Below are positions 17,882 through 41,046 of a stretch of DNA of 64,000 nucleotides, in pieces. The stretch comes from a phage: the sequence record PZ452596.1; one strand, 5' to 3'. The notes beneath the pieces are model-generated. The model did no database searches. It was not told where the DNA came from and worked only from the letters and a program-made list of their open reading frames with translations. Every line of letters starts with the position of its first letter. Position 1 is the first letter of the stretch. The translations under genes and the position numbers were made by a program.

Positions 17882-17889
17882 TATAAATA
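17882..17889 (+). promoter_or_regulatory. late promoter core (gene 34)
   Basis: exact TATAAATA about 35 nt upstream of gene 34 ATG. Confidence 0.7.
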
Positions 17890-17923: not shown

Positions 17924-20900
17924 ATGGCCGAGATTAAAAGAAAGTTCAGAGCAGAAGATGGTCTGGACGCAGGTGGCGATAAAATAATCAACGTAGCTTT
18001 AGCTGATCGTGCCGTAGGAACTGACGGTGTTAACGTTGATTACTTAATTCAAGAAAACACAGTTCAACAATACGATCCAACTCGTGGATATTTAAAAGAT
18101 TTTGTAATCATTTATGATAACCGCTTTTGGGCTGCTATAAATGATATTCCAAAACCAGCAGGAGCTTTTAATAGCGTACGCTGGAGAGCGTTACGTACTG
18201 ATGCAAACTGGACAACTGTTTCATCAGGACCTTATCAATTAAAATCGGGTGAATCAATTTCAGTTGATACTGCAGCTGGTAATGACATTACATTTACTTT
18301 ACCATCTACCCCAATTGACGGTGATACTATCGTTCTCCAAGATATTGGAGGAAAACCTGGAGTTAATCAAGTTTTAATTACAGCTCCGGTACAAAGCATT
18401 GTAAATTTTAGAGGTCAGCAAGTACGTTCAGTACTAATGACTCATCCAAAATCACAGATAGTTTTAATTTTTAGTAATCGTCTGTGGCAAATGTATGTCG
18501 CTGATTATAGTAGAGAAGCTGTAGTTGTAACGCCTGCGAGTCTCTATCAGGCGCAATCAAACGATTTTATCGTACGTAGATTTACTTCTGCTTCAGCAAT
18601 TAATATTAAACTTCCAAGATTTGCCAATCATGGCGATATTATTAATTTCGTTGATTTGGATAAATTAAATCCTCTTTATCACACAATTGTTACTACATAT
18701 GATGAAACAACTTCAGTACAAGAAGTTGGAACTCATTCCATTGAAGGTCGTACATCGATTGACGGTTTCTTGATGTTTGATGATAATGAGAAATTGTGGA
18801 GATTGTTTGATGGGGATAGTAAAGCACGTTTACGCATTATAACAACTAATTCTAATATTCGTCCAAATGAAGAAGTCATGGTATTTGGCGCGAATAATGG
18901 AACAACCCAAACAATTGAACTTCAGCTTCCGACTGATATTTCTGTTGGTGATACTGTCAAAATTTCCATGAATTACATGAGAAAAGGACAAACGGTTAAA
19001 ATCAAAGCTGCAGGTGAAGATAAAATTGCTTCTTCAGTTCAATTGCTGCAATTCCCAAAACGCTCAGAATATCCACCTGAAGCTGAGTGGGTTACAGTTC
19101 AAGAATTAGTTTTTAACGGTGAAACTAATTATGTTCCAGTTTTGGAGCTTGCTTATATTGAAGATTCTGATGGAAAATATTGGGTTGTACAGCAAAACGT
19201 TCCAACTGTAGAAAGAGTAGATTCTTTAAATGATTCTACTAGAGCAAGATTAGGGGTAATTGCTTTAGCTACACAAGCTCAAGCTAATGCTGATTTAGAA
19301 AATTCTCCACAAAAAGAATTGGCAATTACTCCAGAAACGTTAGCTAATCGTACTGCTACAGAAACTCGTAGAGGTATTGCAAGAATAGCAACTACTGCTC
19401 AAGTTAACCAGGATACTACATTCTCTTTTGCTGATGATATTATCATCACTCCTAAAAAGCTGAATGAAAGAACAGCTACTGAAACTCGCAGAGGTGTTGC
19501 TGAAATTGCTACACAGCAAGAAACTAATACAGGAACCGATGATACTACAATCATCACTCCTAAAAAGCTTCAAGCTCGACAAGGTTCTGAATCATTATCT
19601 GGTATTGTAACTTTTGTATCTACTGCAGGTGCTACTCCAGCTTCTAGCCGTGAATTAAATGGTACGAATGTTTATAATAAAAACACTAATAATTTAGTTG
19701 TTTCACCTAAAGCTTTGGATCAGTATAAAGCTACTCCAACACAGCAAGGTGCAGTAATTTTAGCAGTTGAAAGTGAAGTAATTGCTGGACAAAGTCAGGA
19801 AGGATGGGCAAATGCGGTTGTAACACCAGAAACGTTACATAAAAAGACATCAACTGATGGAAGAATTGGTTTAATTGAAATTGCTACGCAAAGTGAAGTT
19901 AACACAGGAACTGATTATACTCGTGCAGTCACTCCTAAAACTTTAAATGACCGTAGAGCAACTGAAAGTTTAAGTGGTATAGCTGAAATTGCTACGCAAG
20001 TTGAATTCGACGCAGGCGTCGACGATACTCGTATCTCTACACCATTAAAAATTAAAACCAGATTTAATAGTACTGATCGTACTTCTGTTGTTGCTCTATC
20101 TGGATTAGTTGAATCAGGAACTCTCTGGGACCATTATACCCTCAATATTCTTGAAGCAAATGAGACACAACGTGGTACACTTCGTGTAGCTACACAAGTT
20201 GAAGCTGCTGCAGGAACATTAGATAATGTTTTAATAACTCCTAAAAAGCTTTTAGGTACTAAATCTACTGAAGCGCAAGAAGGTGTTATTAAAGTTGCAA
20301 CTCAGTCTGAAACTGTGACTGGAACATCAGCAAATACTGCTGTATCTCCAAAAAATTTAAAATGGATCGTGCAGAGCGAACCTACTTGGGCAGCAACTAC
20401 TGCAGTAAGAGGCTTTGTTAAAACTTCATCTGGTTCAATTACATTCGTTGGTAATGATACGGTAGGTTCAACACAGCCATTAGAATCATATGAGAAAAAT
20501 AGCTATGCAGTATCACCATATGAATTAAACCGTGTATTAGCAAATTATCTGCCGTTAAAAGCAAAAGCTGTAGATAGTAATTTATTGGATGGTCTAGATT
20601 CATCTCAGTTCATTCGTAGGGATATTGCGCAGACGGTTAATGGTTCACTAACCTTAACCCAACAAACGAATCTGAGTGCCCCTCTTGTATCATCTAGTAC
20701 TGCTACGTTTGGTGGTTCAGTTACGGCAAATAGTGTACTAACTATTTCTAATACTGGAACAGAAACTCATCTGATTTTTGAGAAAGGACCTCAAACTGGA
20801 ACTAACCAAGCACAGACGGTGACTATTAGAGTGTGGGGTAATCAATTTAGTGGGGAATCAGATACAACACGTTCTACTGTATTTGAAGTTGGTGATGAAA

Positions 20901-21793
20901 CGTCTAATCACTTTTATTCTCAGCGCAATAAAGCTGGAAATATAACATTTAATATCAACGGTACAGTAACACCTATAAATGTTAATGCTTCAGGAACATT
21001 GAATGCAAATGGTGTAGCAACATTTGGTAATTCAGTCACTGCAACTGGTGAAATTATTTCTCGAAGCGCAAATGCTTTCCGTGCTATTAACGGAAATTAT
21101 GGTTTCATTGTTCGCAATGATGGATCAGTAACGAATTTTATGCTTACTGCATCGGGTGATCAGACTGGCGGATTTAATGGATTGCGTCCTTTAGCTATCA
21201 ATAATGCATCTGGTCAAGTAACGATTGGTGAAAGCTTAATCATTGTCAAAGGTGCTACTATAACTTCAGGTGGTTTAACTGTTAACTCGAGAATTCGTTC
21301 TCAGGGTACTAAAACATCTGACTTATATACCCGTGCGCCAACATCTGATACTGTAGGATTCTGGTCAATCGATATTAACGATTCAGCCACTTATAACCAG
21401 TTCCCGGGTTATTTTAAAATGGTTGAAAAAACTAATGAAGTGACTGGACTTCCATACTTAGAACGTGGCGAAGAAGTTAAATCTCCTGGTACATTGACTC
21501 AGTTTGGTAATACACTTGATTCGCTTTACCAAGATTGGATTACTTATCCAACTACCCCAGAAGCACGCACCACTCGCTGGACACGTACATGGCAGAAAAC
21601 CAAAAACTCTTGGTCAAGTTTTGTTCAGGTATTTGACGGAGGTAACCCTCCTCAGCCATCTGATATTGGTGCTTTACCATCTGATAATGCTATAATGGGT
21701 AATCTTACTATTCGTGATTTCTTACGAATTGGTAATGTTCGCATTATTCCTGACCCAGTGAATAAAACTGTTAAATTTGAATGGGTTGAATAA
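17924..21793 (+). CDS. 34: long tail fibre proximal subunit gp34
   Basis: 1289 aa, same length as T4 gp34; SD AGGAG; late promoter TATAAATA upstream; internal fibre repeats. Confidence 0.95.
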   Translation: MAEIKRKFRAEDGLDAGGDKIINVALADRAVGTDGVNVDYLIQENTVQQYDPTRGYLKDFVIIYDNRFWAAINDIPKPAGAFNSVRWRALRTDANWTTVSSGPYQLKSGESISVDTAAGNDITFTLPSTPIDGDTIVLQDIGGKPGVNQVLITAPVQSIVNFRGQQVRSVLMTHPKSQIVLIFSNRLWQMYVADYSREAVVVTPASLYQAQSNDFIVRRFTSASAINIKLPRFANHGDIINFVDLDKLNPLYHTIVTTYDETTSVQEVGTHSIEGRTSIDGFLMFDDNEKLWRLFDGDSKARLRIITTNSNIRPNEEVMVFGANNGTTQTIELQLPTDISVGDTVKISMNYMRKGQTVKIKAAGEDKIASSVQLLQFPKRSEYPPEAEWVTVQELVFNGETNYVPVLELAYIEDSDGKYWVVQQNVPTVERVDSLNDSTRARLGVIALATQAQANADLENSPQKELAITPETLANRTATETRRGIARIATTAQVNQDTTFSFADDIIITPKKLNERTATETRRGVAEIATQQETNTGTDDTTIITPKKLQARQGSESLSGIVTFVSTAGATPASSRELNGTNVYNKNTNNLVVSPKALDQYKATPTQQGAVILAVESEVIAGQSQEGWANAVVTPETLHKKTSTDGRIGLIEIATQSEVNTGTDYTRAVTPKTLNDRRATESLSGIAEIATQVEFDAGVDDTRISTPLKIKTRFNSTDRTSVVALSGLVESGTLWDHYTLNILEANETQRGTLRVATQVEAAAGTLDNVLITPKKLLGTKSTEAQEGVIKVATQSETVTGTSANTAVSPKNLKWIVQSEPTWAATTAVRGFVKTSSGSITFVGNDTVGSTQPLESYEKNSYAVSPYELNRVLANYLPLKAKAVDSNLLDGLDSSQFIRRDIAQTVNGSLTLTQQTNLSAPLVSSSTATFGGSVTANSVLTISNTGTETHLIFEKGPQTGTNQAQTVTIRVWGNQFSGESDTTRSTVFEVGDETSNHFYSQRNKAGNITFNINGTVTPINVNASGTLNANGVATFGNSVTATGEIISRSANAFRAINGNYGFIVRNDGSVTNFMLTASGDQTGGFNGLRPLAINNASGQVTIGESLIIVKGATITSGGLTVNSRIRSQGTKTSDLYTRAPTSDTVGFWSIDINDSATYNQFPGYFKMVEKTNEVTGLPYLERGEEVKSPGTLTQFGNTLDSLYQDWITYPTTPEARTTRWTRTWQKTKNSWSSFVQVFDGGNPPQPSDIGALPSDNAIMGNLTIRDFLRIGNVRIIPDPVNKTVKFEWVE

Positions 21794-21801
21794 GAGGTAT
21801 T

Positions 21802-22917
21802 ATGGAAAAATTTATGGCAGAGTTTGGACAAGGATATGTCCAAACGCCATTTTTATCGGAAAGTAATTCAGTAAGATACAAAATAAGTATAGCGGGTTCT
21901 TGCCCGCTTTCTACTGCAGGACCATACGTTAAATTTCAGGATAATCCTGTAGGAAGTCAAACATTTAGCGCAGGCCTTCATTTAAGAGTTTTTGACCCTT
22001 CCACCGGAGCATTAGTTGATAGTAAGTCATATGCTTTTTCGACTTCAAATGATACTACATCAGCTGCCTTTGTTAGTTTCATGAATTCTTTTTCAAGTAA
22101 TAGACTTGTTGCTATATTAACTAGCGGAAAGGTTAATTTTCCTCCTGAGGTAGTATCTTGGCTAAGAGCCGCGGGAACGTCTGCTTTTCCATCTGATTCT
22201 ATATTGTCAAGATTTGACGTATCATATGCTGCCTTTTATACTTCTTCTAAAAGAGCTATTGCATTAGAACATGTTAAACTAAGTAATAGAAAAAGCACAG
22301 ATGACTATCAAACTATTTTAGATGTTGTATTTGACAGTTTAGAAGACGTTGGAGCTACGGGATTTCCTAAAAGAACATATGAAAGCGTTGAGCAATTTAT
22401 GTCAGCGGTTGGTGGAACTAATAACGAAATTGCACGTTTACCAACTTCATCCGCGATAAGTAAATTATCTGATTATAATTTAATTCCTGGCGATGTTCTT
22501 TATCTTAAAGCGCAGCTATATGCTGATGCCGATTTACTTGCGCTTGGAACTACAAATATATCTATCCGTTTTTATGATGAATCGAATGGATATATTTCTT
22601 CAACACATGCTGAGTTTACTGGACAAGCTGAGACATGGGAATTAAAGGAAGATTATGTAGTTATTCCAGAAAATGCAGTAGGATTTACAATATATGCACA
22701 AAGAACTGCACAAGCAGGTCAAGGTGGCATGAGGAATTTAAGTTTTTCTGAAGTATCAAGAAATGGCGGAATTTCAAAACCTGCAGAATTTGGCGTCAAT
22801 GGTATTCGAGTTAATTATGTCTGTGAATCTGCTTCACCTCCAGATATAATGGTACTTCCTACACAAGCATCGTCTAAAACTGGTAAAGTGTTTGGACAAG
22901 AATTTAGAGAAGTTTAA
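21802..22917 (+). CDS. 35: long tail fibre hinge (knee) protein gp35
   Basis: 371 aa, follows gene 34 by 8 nt. Confidence 0.9.
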   Translation: MEKFMAEFGQGYVQTPFLSESNSVRYKISIAGSCPLSTAGPYVKFQDNPVGSQTFSAGLHLRVFDPSTGALVDSKSYAFSTSNDTTSAAFVSFMNSFSSNRLVAILTSGKVNFPPEVVSWLRAAGTSAFPSDSILSRFDVSYAAFYTSSKRAIALEHVKLSNRKSTDDYQTILDVVFDSLEDVGATGFPKRTYESVEQFMSAVGGTNNEIARLPTSSAISKLSDYNLIPGDVLYLKAQLYADADLLALGTTNISIRFYDESNGYISSTHAEFTGQAETWELKEDYVVIPENAVGFTIYAQRTAQAGQGGMRNLSFSEVSRNGGISKPAEFGVNGIRVNYVCESASPPDIMVLPTQASSKTGKVFGQEFREV

Positions 22918-22922
22918 ATTGA

Positions 22923-22949
22923 GGGAGCCTTCGGGTTCCCTTTTTCTTT
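22923..22949 (+). terminator. rho-independent terminator after gene 35
   Basis: GGGAGCC-UUCG-GGUUCCC hairpin followed by TTTTTCTTT. Confidence 0.7.
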
Positions 22950-22961
22950 ATAAATACTATT
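22949..22961 (+). promoter_or_regulatory. late promoter (gene 36)
   Basis: exact TATAAATACTATT 19 nt upstream of gene 36 ATG. Confidence 0.75.
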
Positions 22962-22979: not shown

Positions 22980-23636
22980 ATGGCTGATTTAAAAGTAGGT
23001 TCAACAACCGGAGGCTCTGTCATTTGGCATCAAGGAAATTTTCCATTGAATCCAGCCGGTGACGATGTACTCTATAAATCATTTAAAATATATTCAGAAT
23101 ATAACAAACCGCAGGCTGCTGATAACGATTTTGTTTCTAAAGCTAATGGTGGTACTTATTTAAATAAAGTAATTTTTAATAAAGGAATGACTGTTCCTGG
23201 CGCAGGGTCAGGCGATAATGGTATTTTTGCTGGTCCTGGTGATAGTGCCACGTATGATACTACAAATATGGATATTGTTTCGTGGTATGGTATTGGTTTT
23301 AAATCATCACAAGGAACAGCAGGTAGAACTGTAGTAATTAACACACGAAATGGAGATATTAGCTCAAAGGGCGTAATTGAAGCATCACAAATCCGTGTAA
23401 CTTCGTTATCACCAGTAAATAATTATGACCTTACGCGGAAAGATTATGTTGATGGAGCAATAAATATTGTTACAGCAAACGCAAACTCTAGGGTATTACG
23501 CTCTGGAGACACTATGACAGGAAATTTAACTGCGCCAAACCTTTTTTCACAGAATCCTGCATCTCAACCCTCACATGTTCCACGATTTGATCAAATTGTT
23601 ATTAAGGATTCTGTTCAAGATTTCGGCTATTATTAA
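22980..23636 (+). CDS. 36: long tail fibre distal connector gp36
   Basis: 218 aa; late promoter TATAAATACTATT immediately upstream. Confidence 0.9.
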   Translation: MADLKVGSTTGGSVIWHQGNFPLNPAGDDVLYKSFKIYSEYNKPQAADNDFVSKANGGTYLNKVIFNKGMTVPGAGSGDNGIFAGPGDSATYDTTNMDIVSWYGIGFKSSQGTAGRTVVINTRNGDISSKGVIEASQIRVTSLSPVNNYDLTRKDYVDGAINIVTANANSRVLRSGDTMTGNLTAPNLFSQNPASQPSHVPRFDQIVIKDSVQDFGYY

Positions 23637-23644
23637 GAGGACTT

Positions 23645-26600
23645 ATGGCTACTTTAAAACAAATACAATTTAAAAGAAGCAAAACTGCAGGAGCACGTCC
23701 TGCCGCTTCAGTATTAGCCGAAGGTGAATTGGCTATAAACTTAAAAGACCGTGTACTTTTTACTAAAGATGACCAAGGAAATATCATTGATCTTGGTTTT
23801 GCTAAGGGCGGTAGTATTGACGGGAATGTTATTCATATAGGAAACTATAATCAAACTGGTGATTATACTTTAAATGGCGTCTTCACTCAGACTGGTAATT
23901 TTAATTTAACTGGTATTGCTCGAGTAACTCGCGATATTATTGCTGCTGGGCAGATTATGACTGAAGGCGGAGAACTTATTACAAAAAGTTCAGGTACAGC
24001 GCATGTTCGTTTTTTCGATGGCAATAGTCGCGAACGTGGAATCATTTATGCCCCGGCTAATGATGGTTTAACTACACAAGTACTTAATATCAGGGTTCAA
24101 GACTACGCCGCTGGTAGCGAAAGCACTTATGCATTTTCAGGCAGTGGCCTATTTACTTCACCTGAAGTATCAGCATGGAAATCTATTTCGTCTCCACAAA
24201 TTCTGACCGACAAAGTTATTACAAACGGGAAGAAGGCAGGAGATTATGATATCTATTCATTAGCAAATAACACCCCATTATCTGAAAGCACTACTGCTAT
24301 TAATCATCTTCGTGTCATGCGTAATGCCGTTGGTTCTGGTATTTTCCATGAAGTTAAAGATAATGATGGGATAACCTGGTATGCCGGTGACGGGTTGGAG
24401 GCTTATCTTTGGTCGTTTACGTGGTCCGGTGGGTTGAAAGCGGGTCATTCTATTTCTATAGGTACCCCAGGCGGTCCAAAAGGATATTCTGAATTAGGAA
24501 CGGCCTCAATTGTTCTTGGGGATAATGATACCGGATTTAAATGGCATCAGGACGGATATTATTTCAGCGTCAATAATGGAACAAAAACGTTTTTATTTAG
24601 TCCCAGAGAAACAACTAGCCTAAGAAAATTTGTAGCTGGATATTCTACTAACGGAACCGATTTAACTACTCCTCCAACTGAAAATTATGCTCTTGCTACT
24701 GTAGTAACATACCACGATAATAACGCGTTTGGAGATGGTCAGACTCTTTTAGGATATTATCAAGGCGGTAACTATCATCATTATTTCCGCGGCAAGGGTA
24801 CTACAAACATTAATACTCATGGCGGTTTGTTAGTTACTCCAGGTAATATTGATGTTATTGGCGGTTCTGTTAATATTGATGGTATAAATAATTCTTCTAC
24901 CCTGCTATTTAGAGGCAACACAACTGGTAGTAGTTCAGTTGATAATATGACAATTTCCGTTTGGGGCAATACGTTTACTAATCCTAGTGTAGGTAATCGT
25001 AAAAACGTCATGGAAATTTCTGATGCAACTAGTTGGATGAGCTATATTCAAAGACTTACAACAGGTGAAGTAGAAATGAACGTTAACGGTTCATTTGAAT
25101 CATCTGGTGTTACTGCTGGAAATAGAGGAGTTCACACAACAGGCGAAATTTCATCTGGAGCAGTGAATGCGCTTCGCATTTGGAACGCAGATTATGGAGC
25201 TATTTTTAGACGTTCAGAAGGTAGTCTTCATATTATTCCAACTGCTTACGGTGAAGGTAAACACGGCGATATCGGTCCACTTCGCCCGTTTAGTATGGCT
25301 TTAGATACTGGTAAAGTTACTATTCCAGATTTACAATCAAGTTACAATACGTTCGCTGCTAACGGTTATATTAAATTTGTTGGTCATGGAGCGGGTGCCG
25401 GCGGTTATGACATTCAATATGTTCAAGCGGCTCCTATTTTCCAGGAAATCGATGATGATGCTGTAAGCAAATATTATCCTATTGTTAAACAGAAGTTTTT
25501 AAACGGTAAATCCGTTTGGTCTTTAGGTACTGAAATTAATTCAGGTACATTTGTTTTACATCATTTAAAAGAAGACGGAACTCAAGGACATACGTCTCGT
25601 TTTAATCAAGACGGTACTGTTAACTTCCCAGATAACGTTCAGGTCGGCGGCGGTGAAGCTACTATTGCTCGCAATGGTAATATCTTCTCCGATATTTGGA
25701 AACCGTTTACTTCTGCAGGTGATACTACAAATATTCGCGATGCTATTGCGACTCGTGTTTCGAAAGAAGGCGACACGATGACCGGTAAGTTGATTATTAG
25801 AAGAGATTCTGACGCTATTAACTTAGCTGCGCCTTCGACAACTGATGCAAGTTACCTTCTTTCTACAGGCGCTGGTGAAAATCTATGGTATATTGGTAAA
25901 GGCGGCGCTGATAATACTGTATCATTTTACAACTATAAAACCAATGGGGCTGTGCAAATTAACTCTATTGGTGAAATCGCGCTGATTCCACAAGGTGCTG
26001 CAACATTTAACTTCAACCGTGATCGTCTCTATATAAATGGGTCTCAATGGACTGCACATCAAGCTGGTGACTGGGTTAACCAATGGCGTCAAGAAGCTCC
26101 TATATTTGTGGATTTTGGTAGTGTCGGCAATGACTGCTATTATCCTATTATTAAAGGAAAATCTGTTATTACGAATGAAGGATACGTATCTGGTGTTGAT
26201 TTCGGTATGCGCCGTATCACTAACCAATGGGCTCAGGCTATTATCCGTGTTGGTAACCAGGAAAATGCTAGCGATCCGCAAGCTATCTTCGAATTCCACC
26301 ATAATGGAAACATGTACGTTCCTGACATGGTTAAAGCTGGAGTAAGATTATCAGCTGGTGGAGGTGACCCTGTATGGACAGGCGCATGTGTTGTTATTGG
26401 TGATAATGACACTGGGTTAGTTCATGGCGGTGACGGTCGTATTAACATGGTTGCAAATGGAGTGCATATTGCTTCATGGTCGTCCGCTTACCATCTCCAT
26501 GAAGGTCTTTGGGATACCACCGGTGCTTTGTGGACTGAACACGGAAGAGCTATTATTTCTTTTGGTCATTTAGTTCAAGAAAGTGATGCCTATTCCACAT

Positions 26601-26959
26601 TTGTCCGCGATGTTTATGTCCGTTCTGATATTCGTGTTAAAAAAGACCTTGTTAAATTTGAAAATGCTTCTGAGAAGCTTTCTAAAATTAACGGTTACAC
26701 TTATATGCAGAAGCGAGGCCTAGATGAAGAAGGCAATCAGAAATGGGAACCTAACGCCGGTTTGATAGCTCAAGAAGTTCAAGCTATTTTGCCTGAATTA
26801 GTTGAAGGTGACCCTGATGGCGAAGCTTTACTTCGTTTGAACTATAACGGTGTAATTGGTTTAAATACAGCTGCAATCAATGAGCATACTGCAGAAATTG
26901 CGGAACTTAAATCAGAAATTGAAGAACTTAAAGCATTAGTTAAATCATTGTTAAAATAA
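23645..26959 (+). CDS. 37: long tail fibre distal subunit gp37 with C-terminal intramolecular chaperone domain
   Basis: 1104 aa; C-terminal ~120 aa ([10 protein letters not shown]...[15 protein letters not shown]...coiled coil) resembles auto-cleaving chaperone domains of phage fibres. Confidence 0.9.
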
Positions 26960-26990
26960 TAAGAGGGGCTTCGGCCCCTTGGAGGTTTAT

Positions 26991-27767
26991 ATGGCAGTAA
27001 CAGGACCGTGGGTAGGATCGTCTGCAGTAGTTAATACAGGACAAAATTGGATGTCCAGCGCGGCCCAACGATTAAGAATGGGTACTCCATTTTGGATGAG
27101 TAATATGATAGGTCGATCTGTTGAAGTAATTCATACACTTGGAGCAGATCATAACTTCAATGGTCAATGGTTCCGAGATAGATGTTTTGAGGCAGGTAGT
27201 GCACCTATAGTGTTTAATATCACTGGAGATTTAGTATCATATTCTAAAGATGTTCCTTTATTCTTCATGTATGGAGATACACCGAATGAATATGTTCAGT
27301 TGAATATACACGGCGTAACGATGTATGGACGTGGCGGTAATGGCGGTAGCAATAGTCCTGGTTCAGCTGGAGGTCATTGTATTCAAAACGATATTGGTGG
27401 GAGACTAAGAATTAATAATGGTGGAGCTATTGCTGGAGGTGGCGGCGGTGGCGGCGGCGGATATTATTCTCCTTTTTCACAAATGAGATTGACTTTTGGA
27501 GGTGGCGGCGGGCGTCCGTTTGGCGCACCGGGCGGATCTATTGATATGCAATCAGGAGCAACTGCTGGTACTATTTCTGCGCCTGGCGCAGGGTCTGTGA
27601 ACGGTATCTATAGCGGCGGTGGCGGTGGCGAAGTTGGCTCCGCAGGAGGTAGATGTAATATTCGTGGTCAAGGATCTGAATACGATGGCGGAGCTGCTGG
27701 TTATGCCGTCATAGGGTCTACACCGACATGGCAAAACGTTGGAGCAATATATGGTCCAAGAGTATAA
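26991..27767 (+). CDS. 38: tail fibre tip adhesin gp38 (T2-type, glycine-rich)
   Basis: start at MAVTGPW with SD GGAGG; poly-Gly tracts (GGGGGGGGG, GGGGG) separating variable segments. Confidence 0.85.
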
Positions 27768-27797
27768 TTTGAATAAATATCCTTAAAAGGAGGGTCT

Positions 27798-28454
27798 ATG
27801 GCAGCACCTAGAATATCATTTTCGCCCTCTGATATTCTGTTGGGTGTTCTAGATCGCTTGTTCAAAGATAACGCTACCGGGAAGGTTCTTGCTTCCCGAG
27901 TAGCTGTCGTAATTCTTTTATTTATGATGGCGATTGTTTGGTATAGGGGAGATAGTTTCTTTGAGTACTATAAGCAATCAAAGTATGAAACATACAGTGA
28001 AATTATTGAAAAGGAAAGAAATGCACGCTTTGAATCTGTCGCCCTGGAACAACTCCAGATAGTTCATATATCATCTGAGGCAGACTTTAGTGCGGTGTAT
28101 TCTTTCCGCCCTAAAAACTTAAACTATTTTGTTGATATTATAGCATACGAAGGAAAATTACCTTCAACAATAAGTGAAAAATCACTTGGAGGATATCCTG
28201 TTGATAAAACTATGGATGAATATACAGTTCATTTAAATGGACGTCATTATTATTCCAACTCAAAATTTGCTTTTTTACCAACTAAAAAGCCTACTCCCGA
28301 AATAAACTACATGTACAGTTGTCCATATTTCAATTTGGATAATATCTATGCTGGAACAATAACCATGTACTGGTATAGAAATGATCATATAAGTAATGAC
28401 CGCCTTGAATCAATATGTTCTCAGGCGGCCAGAATATTAGGAAGGGCTAAATAA
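27798..28454 (+). CDS. t: holin
   Basis: 218 aa, one N-terminal TM helix plus large periplasmic domain; matches T4 T. Confidence 0.93.
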   Translation: MAAPRISFSPSDILLGVLDRLFKDNATGKVLASRVAVVILLFMMAIVWYRGDSFFEYYKQSKYETYSEIIEKERNARFESVALEQLQIVHISSEADFSAVYSFRPKNLNYFVDIIAYEGKLPSTISEKSLGGYPVDKTMDEYTVHLNGRHYYSNSKFAFLPTKKPTPEINYMYSCPYFNLDNIYAGTITMYWYRNDHISNDRLESICSQAARILGRAK

Positions 28455-32929: not shown

Positions 32930-33080
32930 TAGTAGATAACAACACAAATGTTAAATATGCACACATACCCTGAGCTAAAGCTTGCGAAAACACACTGCTG
33001 GCATCAATACAGATAGTTAAAACACATGCTACTATCCAACAAATAAATGAAATAACTCCTAATAATTTTGCAATATTCAT
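32922..33080 (-). CDS. small hydrophobic membrane protein (ac-like position)
   Basis: 52-aa ORF MNIAKLLGVISFICWIVACVLTIC... found by hand. Confidence 0.35.
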   Translation of the reverse strand: MNIAKLLGVISFICWIVACVLTICIDASSVFSQALAQGMCAYLTFVLLSTND

Positions 33081-33087
33081 ATTTTCC

Positions 33088-33168
33088 TCACTGGCGTCCG
33101 AAGACGCCTTTAGTTTTAAGATTATTACGATAGAACTGCATCACGTGTTCGTTGTGGAAATTACTCAT
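33088..33168 (-). CDS. stp: Stp peptide (activator of host PrrC anticodon nuclease)
   Basis: 26-codon ORF translating to [26 protein letters not shown]; start overlaps ndd stop by 1 nt; not in ORF track. Confidence 0.8.
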
Positions 33169-33626
33169 TAATATGCCTGCAAAACGAATTTAAAATTATC
33201 AGCCAACATACGGTTCATTTCTTCAAGTGTTTGATACTCAGAATGATGATTACGAGTAAACGCTAAAGCTAACTGTCCTTTTCCAAATCCCGTCGTCAGA
33301 GGTTTCATCTTAGAAGCAGGCAGATAAAATACTGTGTATGGAACATTGTTATTTGCAATAGTACGTGCAAGCTGAGACCGACGTTGACGAATATGACTTA
33401 GAACTGCACTGAATCCTTGCTTAGAACGCTGATTACCTACATAAAATCGTGCTGACACACATGGATTACTAAATGGACGACCATCTAATTTACTTACTAA
33501 AAAGTAAAATCCAGGTTTAGATAAAATATCTTTATGCGGAGTTCCCAAAAACCACTCACCGCCCTTGATTGTACCAATAACAGTAGCGCCTGCATTATTC
33601 AGATCAGTAACAGTCATGTATTTCAT
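33168..33626 (-). CDS. ndd: nucleoid disruption protein Ndd
   Basis: 152 aa from [18 protein letters not shown]...; track ORF is N-terminally over-extended. Confidence 0.9.
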
Positions 33627-33684
33627 ATTAATTTCCTCTAAATTATTTTCTACTCCAAGGCCGCATGAATACGCGGCCATTAAA

Positions 33685-33900
33685 TTAATCGTCGCAGTCG
33701 ACGCTCAATTCCCAAAACTCTTCTACAGTATAAGTTTCAGTATCATTTTCAATACAGAAACGTTCATTACTATTATTTGCTAAAGTAGCATTAACTGTCG
33801 GTTTCTCGCCAGTGCTCTTAAGAGGTGAAATACGAATTAACTGATCACCATTATCTAAACAAAAAATTTCACCAACTTTTACATCTTTAAAGATTTTCAT
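33685..33900 (-). CDS. hypothetical protein (ndd-denB cluster)
   Basis: 71-aa ORF. Confidence 0.45.
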
Positions 33901-34015
33901 AATTCACCTCAAGGAGTATAAAATCCAAATGCAGTTGTTGACCATCCCATCCAATACGGGAAATTTGCGCCAATGTAAAACATGAGAATATAAAACCAAC
34001 CACTCAGCAAATTCA

Positions 34016-34234
34016 TCATTTTACATCATTCCAAATTGTTTCAACTACAGATTTTAAGCCATTTTGATGAATGTCCATTCCGACAACTGCCATCAAATAG
34101 ATTCCAACTACAACTGAACCCAAGGCGAAAATCAGCATGAAAATGAATAAAGCCGGAAAAATATTATCGAAAAACCATTCAATAAATGTAAAAGCACTAC
34201 GTTTACGCTTCATATTTTCCTCACATAAATCCAA
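34016..34234 (-). CDS. small membrane protein (ndd-denB cluster)
   Basis: 72-aa ORF with hydrophobic helix. Confidence 0.4.
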   Translation of the reverse strand: MDLCEENMKRKRSAFTFIEWFFDNIFPALFIFMLIFALGSVVVGIYLMAVVGMDIHQNGLKSVVETIWNDVK

Positions 34235-34334
34235 AATAAGCGTTTAATACATCAATCATTAAAACGATTGGGAATATACTCAAAACTATTAGTATTATAA
34301 CTACATTCCATATAGCTTTAACAATCTTTTTCAT
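34221..34334 (-). CDS. small membrane protein (ndd-denB cluster)
   Basis: 37 aa from MKKIVKAIWNVVIILIVLSIFPIV...; early promoter just upstream. Confidence 0.35.
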   Translation of the reverse strand: MKKIVKAIWNVVIILIVLSIFPIVLMIDVLNAYFGFM

Positions 34335-34344
34335 TTTCTGTTCC

Positions 34345-34405
34345 TCCGTAGTTGATAGGGTAATAATACCACAGAGGAACAGTCTTGTAAACAACTTTTT
34401 AAAAA
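34345..34405 (-). promoter_or_regulatory. T4-type early promoter (repeat family copy)
   Basis: minus strand GTTTACAAGACTGTTCC... ; variant -10. Confidence 0.45.
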
Positions 34406-34608
34406 TATTCGTAATAAATGTGAATACCAATCACCACTGCCGAAACTTGTGCAACCCACCACGCACAAGCAATAAGTACAGAATTAAAAATTTTCATAAT
34501 AACCTCATCACAAAAGTAAATGTTAAACAAATTAATGGAATACTAATTAACCAAACAAAACACCACCATAATGAACTCATAGTTCAATCTCAACGATTTT
34601 CATTTTAC

Positions 34609-34827
34609 TCAATAATCCGCTAAAAGATCGACGATTGCATCACGAAGACACTTATTCGCAATACGTTTAAGAGCAATTTCAGTTTCTGGAGCATTTTGAA
34701 TAATCATTGAATTCAATTCAGCCTCAGCAAACTGAAGTTCTTTAACTAATTCAGCTTTATATTTTCCTTGCCCTTTCTTAGCTTTTGCTCGTTTTAATTC
34801 AGCTGTAGTAAACATTTTATTCTCCAA
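34609..34827 (-). CDS. hypothetical protein (ndd-denB cluster)
   Basis: 72-aa ORF preceded by early-promoter repeat. Confidence 0.45.
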   Translation of the reverse strand: MENKMFTTAELKRAKAKKGQGKYKAELVKELQFAEAELNSMIIQNAPETEIALKRIANKCLRDAIVDLLADY

Positions 34828-34831
34828 ATCC

Positions 34832-34895
34832 GTATCAGTTGATAGTTGTATATTACCACAGTCCTTGTGGTATGTAAACAGTTTTGTGAAAAAAT
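34832..34895 (-). promoter_or_regulatory. T4-type early promoter (repeat family copy)
   Basis: minus strand CTGTTTACATACCACAAGG...GGTAATATACAACTATCAAC. Confidence 0.45.
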
Positions 34896-34899
34896 TTTT

Positions 34900-35457
34900 T
34901 TAAATGGAAAGATACCATCCATTGTAGTTGCTTTTTCTTACAACCTTACGAAGGTCTTCTCTATCACCGATGAATTTCGGAGTGTACTGGATGACACCTG
35001 GATGAATTTCTTTAGTGTTGAATATAATTATACAGTCAGCGACTTGGTGATTCAGAATGGGCCCTAGATTTATTCCAGAACCGTATGGATACTCTCCGCT
35101 GCATCCGGTTGTTACCGAAATCCATCGTGAGTCAGTTTGATGTGTTTTGACTTCTACACGAAGCCCACAGTATTTTGGATGCGCCAATACATCCCATGCA
35201 TATGTATATGGGTCATTAACATCCTCTTGGCCTTTGTTAACATACCCGCTTAGCCAATCTGCTACAAAAAATTCTGCGTACACAGCGATACGGCATCTTT
35301 CGATAACTTCTGCCTTATCCTGATTTGGGTTTTGTTTTAAAGAGTATCTTGCAGTATCAGCAATTTTGACCTTCATTTCATTGGTTAAATCGCTGTTCGA
35401 TAGAGTAAATGTCGGAATCTGAAATAGTCTCTGTAGCCCCGGATTCGTTTTCTGCAT
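34900..35457 (-). CDS. denB: endonuclease IV (dC-specific)
   Basis: 185 aa, same length and position as T4 DenB. Confidence 0.88.
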   Translation of the reverse strand: MQKTNPGLQRLFQIPTFTLSNSDLTNEMKVKIADTARYSLKQNPNQDKAEVIERCRIAVYAEFFVADWLSGYVNKGQEDVNDPYTYAWDVLAHPKYCGLRVEVKTHQTDSRWISVTTGCSGEYPYGSGINLGPILNHQVADCIIIFNTKEIHPGVIQYTPKFIGDREDLRKVVRKSNYNGWYLSI

Positions 35458-35525
35458 TTAAACTTTCCTTTATGTCGGAATCACTGATATTCATATAATA
35501 AATCATAATTTCTCTTAAAACAAAA

Positions 35526-35537
35526 GGGCCGAAGCCC
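35526..35537 (-). other. UUCG-tetraloop hairpin immediately 3' of stop codon
   Basis: minus strand GGGC-UUCG-GCCC directly after TAA of the 64-aa ORF; identical copy at 35752. Confidence 0.5.
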
Positions 35538-35540
35538 TTA

Positions 35541-35735
35541 TTATTTGAATTGTGCAATTCTTTTCTCTAGACATTCAGCATAAGATTTCATTGAAATGAA
35601 CTGTGAAAGCAGCAGTTCTTGCTCAACTGCACTAACCGTTAGAAACTTTGCGCTTTCTAAAAATTTACTAAGCGCATTAATTTTGAGCATTAATTGATCG
35701 TATTCTTCTTTTACTCGTGCTTGATAACCTAACAT
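35541..35735 (-). CDS. hypothetical small protein between rIIB and denB
   Basis: 64-aa ORF flanked by two identical UUCG-loop hairpins. Confidence 0.45.
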   Translation of the reverse strand: MLGYQARVKEEYDQLMLKINALSKFLESAKFLTVSAVEQELLLSQFISMKSYAECLEKRIAQFK

Positions 35736-35751
35736 AATTTTCCTTAGTTAA

Positions 35752-35763
35752 GGGCCGAAGCCC
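35752..35763 (-). other. UUCG-tetraloop hairpin immediately 3' of rIIB stop codon
   Basis: identical 19-nt element TAAGGGCUUCGGCCCUU as at 35526. Confidence 0.5.
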
Positions 35764-36702
35764 TTATTTAAATTGTTCAGTAACGTCTTCAACTACTTCG
35801 TATTGGCAGGTACGCATTTTAGCGTCGTTGTAATCAATCGGAATTGATACTACATCGCGAGGATGTACTTTAACTTTTACAACTCGGCTGGTTGAACTGC
35901 CAAAGTGACGAATATAAGATTTAGAACACACATGCAGACCGCGAGAACAAGTTTGTGTATCATCGTCATTCACACGAGTACGTGGCATTTTAACTACTTT
36001 ACCCGGACTGTTATCAAATGTGTTTGAGTGACAGTCAAAGTAATTGCTGCGAACTACTTTCCAAGCATAGAAGTAACCATCTTCTGTAATTTCAATATCG
36101 TTTGCTACCAAGAAATCAAAGAGTCGAGATACCGCTTTTTGGCTTGGGTTTTCCAGCAGATTTTCCAAGAACGGAAAATAAAATTCAAAGTTTTCGCCTT
36201 TTTCCATCGAGTCAAGAATACGATCAACTAAACCGGACCGCAATTCGATATTTTGATAGAACAAGCTTCCACCTTCAATTCGAACATCGCCGGAAATATA
36301 TTTTTCAACAGCGCGACGAACATTAATTTTTTGCACAGCTTCTTCCAGCTTATCCGCTACAAGCAGATTAAGAATTTCCTGGAAGTTTGAATGAGTATTA
36401 GGAGTTGCGTTATAAGTTACGCCATCAACAGTAATTGAAATGAATTTTTTAGATGCATTCCAAATAATGTCAGATTTAGCAACTGGAGCAATAACTGCAT
36501 CGCTATTAACTTTAACTGTAATATCACCGCTAATAGTAACTTTAGGGTGTTTAGCTTCTTCAGCATTTTTCAAAACACGACGGATTGTGTCAACCGATAC
36601 ACCTTGCCAATCAGCCAATTCCTGTTGGGTGTAATTACCACTTGAATACAGTTTAACAATTTCAGCTTGTTCATTTTTGGTCAGGCATTTAATATTGTAC
36701 AT
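35764..36702 (-). CDS. rIIB: rIIB protein
   Basis: 312 aa, matches T4 rIIB. Confidence 0.95.
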   Translation of the reverse strand: MYNIKCLTKNEQAEIVKLYSSGNYTQQELADWQGVSVDTIRRVLKNAEEAKHPKVTISGDITVKVNSDAVIAPVAKSDIIWNASKKFISITVDGVTYNATPNTHSNFQEILNLLVADKLEEAVQKINVRRAVEKYISGDVRIEGGSLFYQNIELRSGLVDRILDSMEKGENFEFYFPFLENLLENPSQKAVSRLFDFLVANDIEITEDGYFYAWKVVRSNYFDCHSNTFDNSPGKVVKMPRTRVNDDDTQTCSRGLHVCSKSYIRHFGSSTSRVVKVKVHPRDVVSIPIDYNDAKMRTCQYEVVEDVTEQFK

Positions 36703-36713
36703 AATTTTCCTTA

Positions 36714-38891
36714 TTAGGCCGCAAGGGCCTTCATAGTTTTAGCGATTTGGGAAACTTCATCATCACTTAAAGAGTTGCGATAACCGATGAAGTCGGAAAC
36801 AATACGGAATTTCTTGGTAAACTCAGCAACCATTTTATCACTGTTTTTTGAAGCATTATTTGATAATACATCAAAAAGATTAGTTACTGTCCAGATGTCA
36901 TGACCGATAGTATCTTTTCCACCATTAAAATATACACCCTGTAATGAACTAACCATATTAGCGAGTCGTGTATATTCTTCAGAAACTTCATCTACACTGA
37001 AGTACTTCATCATAAAATCTAGCTCAGGATACTTGATAATTTTATCAATATATCGTTTAGCTGAACTTGAATAACCTACATACTTATCATAATCTACATC
37101 ATCAAAAGCATCTACATATAAATCACGCAAAGCTTCAAAAATACATTGGCACTGACCGAGTTCTTTTACCTTTTTCTGTAAAAGCGGACGAATAACATAA
37201 AATTCATTAATGCCAATAAGATTAGCCATACGAATCAAAATATTCATAGATGGATGACAAAGAGATGTAGTACCATCCATAGAAAAAATATCAGAACGAT
37301 GCATATACGCTACATAACCAGTAATTTCATCTGCTTCTGACGTGAGCGTAAATAATTCCTCTTTTTCCCAGCGCCCGTCTTTAATTTCAAACTTAAATGC
37401 TGTAGCAGCTTTAGGACGAGGAGCTTTACTTTTAACTACCTTTGGAATATAGCTTTTAACTAAAGCTTCAATTTCTGACAAATAATGAATGTTAACTTCA
37501 TCACTTTCAAACATTGCCATAATATCAGGAAGCAAATCAATCTGCGATTCTACTTCTGGGTTAATAAACAGAAGACGCTCATTGTGATGAATATTCAAAG
37601 TGTTATTAAATTCACTATCATCTAACGCACGTGCTAATCCACGAACAATATTAACACGATTTTTAATATTATCAATAACGATATTAATTTTTGTTGTATT
37701 AATACCAAACAGACGATAACTTGATGCAACGGCTGAAGTTTCATGGCTTTGCTTAATACGTTTCAGCCGAGGGTCAAGATTTACTTCATACACAACCCCT
37801 GCATTACATAACTTACTATCAGGTTCAAACATGCTCTGCATCTTCTTATATGACAGATTTTTAGTCGTGAATTTGACTGAATTACTAATCATATAATCTC
37901 GAGCAGAATACCCCATCTTCATTAATTCGCGATATGTATGACGAGGAGATGTAGATTCTTTAAATCGTTTTACATCTTCATTAAATGCTTTCTCACTGAG
38001 TTCTTTAACTCGTTCAATAATATTTTTACGAGTACGATCATCCAGTGAAAGAGCCTCACGAGATGGAGCAATATCAAGTGAACCCATTGGGAACTTAATG
38101 TAATTCACTTCATTGCGAATGCTTAGCCAGTTACGGTCTCTAATAACACCATCGATAGGATAAACAATACCGCCATAGATAGCATATAATCCACCGCGAT
38201 CAGGCCAGTATCTTTCTGGATTTACGCCATAATAATCATCAAAATCCGGAAAATAATCAATTTCGCGGTCAAGACCATTAATGATAGCCAAATCTTTGAA
38301 CGGTCGCATGATATAAGAAACTTCATAAGCAAAGTTTCTAAAGTCTTTTTCTTCAACTGGAACTACGATTTCAATACCAGTTTTATCATCTGGACCCATT
38401 TCTTTTACGAATGTAGGTTTAATCTGTGGGCCATCACCATCCATATAAGCTACATAACCACGAATTTCACCTTTATGATACGAAGTAATACTAAACGTAT
38501 CAGTATAACTAAACGGAGATTTAGAACCTAAACCAAATCCGCCAATGAAATCGTTAGATTCAGCCTTAGATGAACTGAAGTATGAATTATACAGACCAGG
38601 AGAATTATCATCACCCTGAATATCAAAATCACTCATACCTGGACCAAAATCTCGGCAAACAAATCGTGGATCTAAACGTCCAGGAACTTGAATGATAAAT
38701 TTTTCAGGATTTCCATTGAGAGCATGGGCATCAATCATGTTGGTAATCAATTCACGGACTACTGCGCGAATTTTGTTTGTATACAAATCAGATGACAGAA
38801 TTTTAAATACTTTAGGAGATGCTGTGATGCTAAATGCTTTTGATTTAGAACCATTACCAAGAATTGTTTCTTTTTCAGTGGTGATAATCAT
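36714..38891 (-). CDS. rIIA: rIIA protein
   Basis: 725 aa, N-terminal GHKL-like ATPase region; matches T4 rIIA. Confidence 0.95.
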
Positions 38892-38901
38892 AATTTCCTC
38901 A

Positions 38902-39105
38902 TTAATTCATATTACGCTTAATAACTTCAGCAACTTCTAGTAGTTCATCTTTAGTTGCGGTGTCGGATTGAATTTTATCTCTAATATCTTTAAAGCGGTT
39001 TTTAAATTCTTCGGCTTCTCCCATATCGAAAAAGCGTTGAATGATTCTATATTCTCGATAAACTGCTTTATCAAAAAGTTCTAAATTTACTCTATATGAT
39101 TTCAT
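38902..39105 (-). CDS. hypothetical protein (rIIA.1 position)
   Basis: 67-aa ORF. Confidence 0.5.
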
Positions 39106-39124
39106 TTCAATATCCTCATTTGCC

Positions 39125-39165
39125 CAATTAATTATACCACATCCTTGTGGTAAAGTAAACTACTG
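39125..39165 (-). promoter_or_regulatory. early promoter upstream of rIIA.1/rIIA
   Basis: minus strand GTTTAC -16- GGTATAAT. Confidence 0.5.
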
Positions 39166-40980: not shown

Positions 40981-41046
40981 TTATCCTCGTTTGGTTTCGG
41001 GAATATTATACTCCGGTAATCATAAAGCTAAAGGCCCGAAGGCCTT

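Follow-up and report, generated by a model that had tools for sequence, protein, structure and literature searches.

The region 23645-27767 of the 64-kb window (the whole stretch of phage DNA analysed) encodes, judged from its sequence, the module at the distal tip of the long tail fibre in the T-even coliphage RB27. It is 100% identical over 4123 nt to Enterobacteria phage RB27 (NC_025448), for which RefSeq annotates RB27_244 as long tail fibre distal subunit and RB27_245 as host-specificity tail fibre protein. The full model put forward here, a naturally recombinant RB27 tip module consisting of gp37 with a self-cleaving chaperone and a T6-type gp38 adhesin directed at the receptor Tsx, is considered very probable, and no sequence features contradicting it were found.

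The gp37/gp38 module is the primary host-range determinant in most T-even phages and represents the part exchanged in the re-targeting of phages for therapeutic or diagnostic use. The architecture of the module, its adhesin fold and self-cleaving chaperone, the occurrence of recombination at conserved motifs and, for RB27, the gp38 type and receptor are already known, and published work is in agreement (Tétart 1998; Trojet 2011, PMC3157838; Dunne 2018). The present analysis bears out the existing annotation without adding new biology. RB27 provides a clean natural plug-and-play case, with T6-type receptor loops on a PP01-type fibre, joined within a glycine-rich motif.

Gene organization and transcription

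The genes and signals of the module and of its upstream neighbourhood are as follows.

22921-22942: terminator-like hairpin, just before the late-promoter match
22949..22956, + strand: exact match to the T4-type late-promoter consensus TATAAATA, 24 nt upstream of gene 36
22980..23636, + strand: gp36, distal connector onto which gp37 assembles (Pfam Phage_T4_gp36, E=1.5e-28; RefSeq gene 36)
23645..26959, + strand: gene 37, long tail fibre distal subunit precursor, 1104 aa (ORF; 100% identical to RB27_244)
26964..26979, + strand: intercistronic GC hairpin AGGGGC-UUCG-GCCCCU with C(UUCG)G tetraloop (read directly from the sequence)
26981-26985: gene 38 ribosome-binding site GGAGG, directly 3' of the GC hairpin
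26991..27767, + strand: gene 38, tail-fibre tip adhesin, 258 aa (Pfam, PDB, RefSeq RB27_245)

The gene order 34-35-36-37-38-t is the same as in T4. Gene 38 is located immediately downstream of gene 37, and 31 nt separate its ATG from the stop codon of the latter. The preliminary description had assigned 1104 aa to gp37, in agreement with an ORF at exactly the coordinates listed, and 258-262 aa to gp38. The ORF coordinates of the latter (26979/26991-27767; 262 aa from TTG, 258 aa from ATG) were reproduced, while the range of lengths narrows to 258 aa, ATG 26991 being the real start. The TTG start at 26979 (262 aa) was rejected, as it overlaps the hairpin and the GGAGG Shine-Dalgarno sequence, and RefSeq, the homologues and solved S16 gp38, which aligns from Met1 of the 258-aa form, all favour the ATG.

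From its position, the TATAAATA match at 22949..22956 probably marks the start of the 36-37-38 late transcript. Since TATAAATA is not enriched in the 64-kb window (6 found vs 9.8 expected) and a sigma-70 promoter scan stayed near background (31 found vs 23.4 expected), promoter assignments are purely positional. The GC hairpin at 26964..26979, reported on the minus strand by the inverted-repeat scan, may contribute to mRNA stability or translational coupling.

Distal subunit gp37 and its C-terminal chaperone

Within gp37, the following features were assigned.

24992..25294, + strand: internal gp34-like trimerisation domain, aa 450-550 (Pfam Gp34_trimer, E=1.1e-7)
26381..26623, + strand: distal tip, aa 913-993, predicted gp38-docking beta-helix (aligns to S16 gp37 tip, 6F45_A)
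26623/26624: predicted cleavage site R993/S994 at the distal end of the gp37 tip (S16 alignment)
26624..26956, + strand: intramolecular chaperone / Peptidase S74 domain, aa 994-1104, 111 aa (Pfam PF13884; alignment with the S16 IMC)

The protein matches PHROG 1699 over its full length (E=0), and its residues 418-561 match the T4 gp34 structures 4UXE/5NXF at ~5e-12. The distal tip (913-993) is 92.6% identical to that of PP01, and residues 913-1104 align to S16 gp37 (PDB 6F45_A) with E=4.2e-43. T4 gp37 is homologous in its N-terminal 640 residues (35% identity) but, unlike RB27 gp37, lacks an S74 domain and binds the receptor with a tip of its own. Similarity to T6 gp37 is confined to separate local segments of 27.9-77.4% identity, with 33% in the chaperone region. 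The fibre shaft of S16 is presumably much shorter than that of RB27.

The proposal that gp37 ends in a domain resembling the auto-cleaving chaperones of other phage fibres was borne out by membership in Pfam PF13884 (Peptidase_S74, "Chaperone of endosialidase"; E=9.9e-13, 48.6 bits vs a cut-off of 22), gp37 residues 994-1053 corresponding to profile positions 1-57 of 58, i.e., to the S74 core. The domain comprises the last 111 of 1104 residues and is therefore situated at the extreme C-terminus of gp37; more than 15 tail-fibre families in PHROG also end in this segment. At its N-terminal edge resides the Ser-Lys dyad Ser994/Lys999 in S-x4-K spacing (S994-D-I-R-V-K999), and neither residue varies among RB27, T6 and T2. 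The S-x4-K spacing is also found in endosialidase and T5. Of the two motifs quoted in the preliminary description, R993-SDIRVKKDL is present as given there and the other lies at 1039-1053, and the heptad coiled coil that it had placed after them extends over five heptads from ~1067 to 1104, in the register a = I-I-I-I-V and d = Y-N-H-L-L-L.

The RB27 sequence VYVR/SDIRVKK aligns opposite DLNVS/SDRRIKK of S16 (slashes denote the cleavage position), where the last 113 residues of S16 gp37 were experimentally shown to self-cleave, the gp38 docking surface being exposed only after this cleavage (PMC7917993). Proteolytic processing was also reported for gp37 of T2 and T6 (PMC3157838). On the grounds of these homologues, RB27 gp37 would be expected to self-cleave between R993 and S994.

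When the C-terminal 131 aa were searched against the PDB as a single sequence, matches beyond S16 were only marginal (MYRF, E=0.02; 8JOV, 0.047), and a three-sequence profile reached the S74 domain of MYRF (E=1.2e-9) and 8JOV, another tail fibre (8.7e-8). Neither PDB search, with the single sequence or with the three-sequence profile, matched endosialidase or T5 pb1 chains. The S74 domains of K1F endosialidase, T5 pb1 and MYRF share with that of RB27 the Pfam family, the Ser-Lys dyad and a C-terminal helical bundle and, like it, occupy the very C-terminal end of a trimeric fibre, whereas sequence similarity is distant only. A single-sequence AlphaFold2 model of gp37 913-1104 had a mean pLDDT of 39.8, which is too poor for a fold search.

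Adhesin gp38 and receptor specificity

The domains of gp38 are arranged as follows.

26991..27110, + strand: N-terminal attachment domain, aa 1-40, with Trp7, Trp20 and Trp35 (Pfam Gp38_N)
27327..27764, + strand: receptor-specificity domain, aa 113-258, glycine-rich motifs alternating with T6-type hypervariable loops

As anticipated, gp38 is of the adhesin type and not a chaperone-only protein as in T4. It is a member of Pfam families GP38 (PF05268; E=1.4e-70, 238 bits) and Gp38_N (PF21721; E=1.7e-22, 79.6 bits; cut-off 25 in both cases), matches PHROG 2056 (E=7.8e-111) and aligns with the solved adhesins of S16 (full-length, PDB 6F45_D, E=2.2e-53) and PP01 (receptor-binding domain, PDB 9V85, E=6.9e-81). 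The unrelated T4 gp38, a chaperone of 183 aa, gave a best BLASTP match of 12 residues (E=1.9). Trp7, Trp20 and Trp35 are invariant across RB27, T6 and T2 and aligned with S16, from the structure of which they are known as docking "prongs" (PMC6851490).

Residues 113-258 consist of 34% Gly, including one run of nine (149-157) and two of five (170-174 and 209-213), and the GC content of the specificity domain is 51%. In gp38 alignments, conserved glycine-rich blocks, among them GGxGGxVG and GGAAG, are separated by variable stretches. The proposed T2/S16-type gp38 thus stood with respect to its architecture and its poly-Gly tracts with variable loops, whereas the specificity domain is of the T6 type: across residues 116-258, identity amounts to 94.4% (135/143) with T6, 55.9% with PP01 and 51.0% with T2. 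A T2-type specificity was discarded, T2 gp38 being 49% identical overall.

In the S16 gp37-gp38 tip (PDB 6F45; Dunne et al. 2018), as in RB27, the gp37 tip precedes a self-cleaving chaperone with an aligned S/SDxRxKK-type site, and gp38 combines three Trp prongs with a beta-helix and a polyglycine sandwich. The two differ by a 12-residue insertion in the RB27 gp37 tip, by their hypervariable loops and in chaperone length (111 aa in RB27 vs 113 aa in S16). T6 gp38 possesses the same four hypervariable segments as RB27 in its 94.4% identical specificity domain, and both are counted as Tsx users; the attachment half, however, is only 76.5% identical and lacks a 2-aa "VP" insertion.

RB27 has been placed among the T6-like, Tsx-using adhesins, in agreement with spot tests (Trojet et al. 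2011, PMC3157838), and phages FL23 and FL44, the gp38 of which are 93.8% identical to that of RB27, are Tsx-dependent by experiment (PMC12032242). Since the RB27 loops are of the T6 type, we infer from this comparison and the literature that the receptor of RB27 is the nucleoside channel Tsx. The specificity domains of RB27 and T6 differ at 8 of 143 residues, and changes of about this size add or switch receptors in the gp38 family (PST vs T6, RB68 vs RB51). Receptors additional to Tsx are therefore conceivable; one of these might be, e.g., that behind the low-frequency plating of RB27 on Yersinia.

Chimeric origin of the module

The module is a natural chimera, in which gene 36, gene 37 and gp38 1-115 are PP01-like and gp38 116-258 is T6-like.

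27336..27343: recombination joint in the codons of GRM1 (G113-R-G-G-N-G-G119), PP01-like upstream and T6-like downstream

PP01 gp36, gp37 (87.6% aa identity; chaperone 100%) and gp38 1-115 (89.6%) belong to the lineage of RB27. In contrast, gp38 116-258 of the OmpC-binding PP01 (PDB 9V85) is only 55.9% identical and therefore has receptor loops of a different type. Three-way informative sites place the last PP01-type position at 27335 and the first T6-type position at 27344, and sliding identity switches from PP01 to T6 at the same place.

The repetitive DNA of gene 38 had been regarded as a likely recombination substrate, which is supported by this real crossover within GRM1, though the joint lies outside the exact GGTGGCGGCGG string. 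Gene 38 contains GGTGGCGGCGG three times exactly and twice with one mismatch, and 6 matches of this type were found in the whole 64-kb window vs 0.06 expected, a number reached by none of 100 shuffles. Published crosses likewise revealed exchanges in or near conserved motifs (PMC3157838). The longest Gly run is encoded by the near-tandem GGTGGCGGC GGTGGCGGC GGCGGA, and its length is nine in RB27 and T6, eight in PP01 and seven in T2.

Proposed assembly and alternative explanations

According to the proposed mechanism, for which homologues and the literature serve as a guide, gp37 would be made as a precursor of 1104 aa, the last 111 residues of which act as intramolecular chaperone of the Peptidase S74 type. 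The C-terminal coiled coil of the chaperone would nucleate trimerisation of the beta-helical shaft, upon which the chaperone would release itself by cleavage between Arg993 and Ser994 via the Ser994/Lys999 dyad and thereby leave the gp37 trimer with an exposed blunt end. One gp38 molecule per trimer (stoichiometry 3:1) would then dock onto this end by its three-helix N-terminal domain, with Trp7, Trp20 and Trp35 inserting into three equivalent pockets. In the C-terminal half of gp38, the glycine-rich motifs are predicted to form a polyglycine-II sandwich, the hypervariable loops of which would touch the host receptor. The PP01-like shaft, chaperone and attachment half are joined by recombination to the T6-like specificity half inside the first glycine-rich motif.

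From its position between gene 37 and gene t, shared with T4 gene 38, gene 38 could also be taken to encode an assembly chaperone only, absent from the virion as in T4, with the C-terminus of gp37 binding the receptor. The probability of this is practically negligible, given the lack of similarity to T4 gp38 (best E=1.9), the strong matches of RB27 gp38 to adhesin families and solved adhesin structures, and the comparison of RB27 gp37 beyond residue 640 with the receptor-binding part of T4 gp37 (744-1026), where nothing significant was found (E=0.007 or weaker). It is likewise extremely unlikely that the S74-like domain is an uncleaved, degenerate relic retained by the mature fibre, where it would serve as a structural cap or help to form the surface on which gp38 docks. 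Such a relic would be compatible with the low pLDDT (39.8) of the single-sequence fold model, and cleavage of the RB27 protein is predicted from homologues; yet the dyad has kept its S-x4-K spacing and is unchanged in T6 and T2, the S74 score is well over the Pfam cut-off, gp37 of the close homologue S16 is cleaved at the aligned position to expose its gp38 docking surface (PMC7917993), and T2 and T6 gp37 are reported as processed (PMC3157838).

That RB27 uses OmpC, as does PP01, or another porin instead of Tsx appears very unlikely. Both gp37 and gp38 1-115 are PP01-like, PP01 gp38 binds OmpC (PMC12892980), and few loop substitutions can switch the receptor in the gp38 family, but the receptor-determining residues 116-258 are far closer to T6 (94.4%) than to PP01 (55.9%), published spot tests group RB27 with the Tsx users, and the near-identical FL23 and FL44 require Tsx. 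The view that the GGY glycine codon repeats are mainly sites of replication slippage, varying the length of Gly runs, and not recombination substrates is considered unlikely. It can draw on the near-tandem GGTGGCGGC units coding for the longest Gly run and on the variation of run length among phages; the sole exchange demonstrable in the sequence, however, is the homologous crossover in GRM1, published crosses place exchanges in or near conserved motifs (PMC3157838), and slippage and recombination are not mutually exclusive. Within the preferred model of a recombinant, Tsx-directed tip module, the 111-residue chaperone, once released, might serve a further function, e.g., inside the infected cell or in the control of gp38 loading, or the eight loop substitutions might give RB27 an extra, undescribed receptor; both are hinted at by conservation alone and are judged very improbable. 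The further function of the chaperone is raised because RB27 and PP01 have the same amino acid sequence in this domain (100% identity), as against 56-93% in the neighbouring shaft and adhesin segments.

Comparison with other RB27 and T2-like records

The partial RB27 record of 1998 (AF075710) differs from the present sequence at 15 positions, nearly all of them swaps of neighbouring bases, as is typical of errors in gel reading; the final two codons and the stop (9 nt) are missing from it. Elsewhere in the window, at 33000-41000, the best full-length matches are T2-like phages (96.8%); the RB27 record ends at approximately window position 36713, so that a match to RB27 in this part would split into two places.

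Organization of the gene 37–38 locus

The tail fibre region displays the canonical T-even order gp34, gp35, gp36, gp37, gp38, holin t and comprises the following features:

17882–17889, late-promoter consensus TATAAATA, before gene 34
17924–21793, gp34
22921–22942, terminator-like hairpin GAGGGAGCC-TTCG-GGTTCCCTT with T run, directly after gene 35
22949–22956, exact late-promoter consensus TATAAATA, following the hairpin just before gene 36
23645–26959, plus strand, gene 37 (1104 aa)
26964–26979, GC hairpin AGGGGC-TTCG-GCCCCT (6-bp stem, C(UUCG)G tetraloop), after the gene 37 stop, ahead of the gene 38 Shine-Dalgarno sequence
26979 (TTG, 262 aa) or 26991 (ATG, 258 aa) to 27767, plus strand, gene 38
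27772–27779, AATAAATA, one mismatch from TATAAATA, before gene t
27798–28454, holin t, after gp38
beyond holin t, opposite strand, asiA

The two neighbouring plus-strand ORFs 37 and 38 were found at precisely the coordinates of the preliminary description, whose overall observation of a host-range module is borne out and whose interpretation is supported with two refinements, namely T6/Tsx specificity and a PP01-like chimeric backbone. All 4123 nt of 23645–27767 are 100 % identical to the T-even coliphage Enterobacteria phage RB27 (KM607000 / NC_025448; megablast); in total, 648 phage records matched this stretch, 119 of them over at least 80 % of its length. RefSeq labels gene 37 "long tail fiber protein distal subunit" and gene 38 "tail fiber protein; host specificity". 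Published work, including work on RB27, already covers the S74 chaperone of T2/S16-type gp37, the fold of the adhesin, its alternation of glycine-rich and hypervariable parts and recombination at conserved motifs, as well as the type and receptor of RB27 gp38.

The start of gp38 is the ATG at 26991: a TTG start at 26979 would overlap the ribosome-binding site GGAGG (26981–26985), RefSeq likewise has the ATG, and the alignment with the solved gp38 of Salmonella phage S16 begins at Met1 of the 258-aa product; the 262-aa form is thereby rejected. The very stable hairpin at 26964–26979 belongs to a type familiar from T4 intercistronic regions; it may influence gene 38 translation or the stability of the mRNA. 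Residues 58–123 of the proximal hinge connector gp35 (21973–22170) match Pfam ILEI (interleukin-like EMT inducer / FAM3 fold, PF15711; 31.5 bits, cut-off 27 bits, E=2.7e-7), a family whose name is surprising for a hinge protein of a phage fibre. Coordinate arithmetic puts the end of the linear RB27 GenBank record at ~36713; the 64-kb window crosses this arbitrary end, as would fit a genome that is circularly permuted. The top full-length matches for 33000–41000 did not include RB27, presumably as its match splits into two places.

C-terminal chaperone of gp37

The proposed chaperone-like C-terminus of gp37 is supported by Pfam Peptidase_S74 ("Chaperone of endosialidase") on residues 994–1053 (E=9.9e-13; 48.6 bits, cut-off 22 bits) and by alignment of residues 913–1104 with the S16 gp37 tip (PDB 6F45 chain A, E=4.2e-43). 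In this alignment, RB27 DVYVR/S994DIRVK999K lies opposite S16 DLNVS/SDRRIKK (slash, aligned bond), and the serine as well as the lysine five residues on are invariant across gp37 of RB27, T6 and T2. In S16, the final 113 residues form an intramolecular chaperone that cleaves itself at this bond once trimerised, exposing the gp38 docking surface (PMC7917993); T2 and T6 gp37 also undergo proteolytic processing (Trojet et al. 2011, PMC3157838). From the S74 match and the S16-aligned site we infer cleavage of RB27 gp37 and therefore predict a mature protein of 993 aa and a released fragment of 111 aa.

A profile of the RB27, T6 and T2 gp37 C-termini (n=3) matches human MYRF at its bona fide S74 domain (7DC3, E=1.2e-9) as well as a further phage tail fibre (8JOV, E=8.7e-8). 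Residues ~987–1104 match the extreme C-terminal end of >15 different tail-fibre families (PHROGs), as expected of a portable chaperone module, and the final ~38 residues display a clean five-heptad register (a=I,I,I,I,V; d=Y,N,H,L,L,L). The single-sequence AlphaFold model (pLDDT 39.8) was too poor for fold-level evidence. Further upstream, gp37 418–561 (24896–25327) shows homology to the trimerisation domain at the C-terminus of gp34, the protein of the proximal fibre (Pfam Gp34_trimer; PDB 4UXE/5NXF, E about 5e-12), a module thus common to the two half-fibres.

Adhesin type and receptor

gp38 matches both Pfam adhesin families (GP38, E=1.4e-70; Gp38_N, E=1.7e-22), aligns over its full length with S16 gp38 (6F45_D, E=2.2e-53) and, across residues 37–258, with the receptor-binding domain of PP01 gp38 (9V85, E=6.9e-81; identified via PMC12892980). 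Alignment to T4 gp38, named in the preliminary description as a contrary outcome, was not obtained: the 183-aa T4 chaperone displayed no similarity to RB27 gp38 (best E=1.9), and the adhesin families match instead. gp38 carries invariant Trp7, Trp20 and Trp35; their S16 equivalents are the three prongs docking one gp38 monomer on the gp37 trimer (PMC6851490). Residues 113–258 contain 34 % glycine with runs of G9, G5 and G5. The sequence here switches between conserved glycine-rich motifs and variable segments, the pattern described by Trojet et al.; in S16, such motifs form a polyglycine-II sandwich (PMC6851490).

Over its whole length, gp38 shares 86 % identity with T6 gp38 and 49 % with T2 gp38; in the specificity domain (residues 116–258, harbouring the receptor loops), identity is 94.4 % with T6, 55.9 % with PP01 and 51.0 % with T2. 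The interpretation as a "T2-type" module stands, with the refinement that its specificity is of T6/Tsx rather than T2 type. RB27 gene 38 was sequenced by Trojet et al. and placed among "T6-like adhesin sequences", all said to recognise Tsx (PMC3157838). Moreover, gp38 of phages FL23 and FL44, which lost infectivity on tsx deletion (PMC12032242), are 93.8 % identical to that of RB27. Because of this literature assignment and homology, Tsx would be the expected receptor of RB27.

Mosaic structure and recombination joint

The module backbone is a PP01-like chimera. In sliding-window nucleotide comparison, RB27 is mostly 85–100 % identical to PP01 from gene 36 through gene 37 into gene 38 with a few divergent shaft patches, versus only 0–70 % to T6 over the greater part of gene 37. 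The pattern inverts at ~27300–27340, RB27 being 82–97 % identical to T6 and 37–79 % to PP01 up to the conserved 3' end. Among three-way informative sites, the last PP01-type is 27335 and the first T6-type 27344; the recombination joint therefore lies in the codons of G113-R-G-G-N-G-G119, the first glycine-rich motif (GRM1) of gp38.

Amino acid identity of RB27 gp37 and gp38 to PP01
gp37 overall, 87.6 %
gp37 docking tip (913–993), 92.6 %
gp37 chaperone (994–1104), 100 %
gp38 residues 1–115, 89.6 %

Evidently, the gp37 tip and the gp38 attachment domain moved as one while the receptor loops were swapped. Tétart et al. reportedly noted the same behaviour in 1998. Receptor-loop exchange with tip and attachment domain kept together is also described by Trojet et al. 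2011 (PMC3157838).

Repeats of the GGTGGCGGCGG type had been proposed as recombination substrate. Gene 38 contains three exact and two one-mismatch copies and gene 37 one further one-mismatch site (6 matches in the window versus 0.06 expected by chance); a repeat search grouped six related 28-nt copies spread over the glycine-rich motifs. GC content reaches 51 % in the 3' half of gene 38 versus 35 % for the window. The proposal is reasonable and agrees with the joint observed in GRM1; however, this joint sits in the related GGCGGTAATGGCGG and not in exact GGTGGCGGCGG.

Within gene 37, identity to PP01 falls to 49–80 % at 24230–24680, 25030–25130 and 25730–26030, which suggests further small mosaic exchanges in the shaft. 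The partial RB27 record AF075710 (Tétart et al. 1998) covers the same stretch without its final 9 nt and shows 15 differences from the window over 26042–27758; nearly all are adjacent-base swaps (GC<->CG, AG<->GA, TC<->CT, GG.G->CC.C), suggestive of misread gels rather than of variation between strains.
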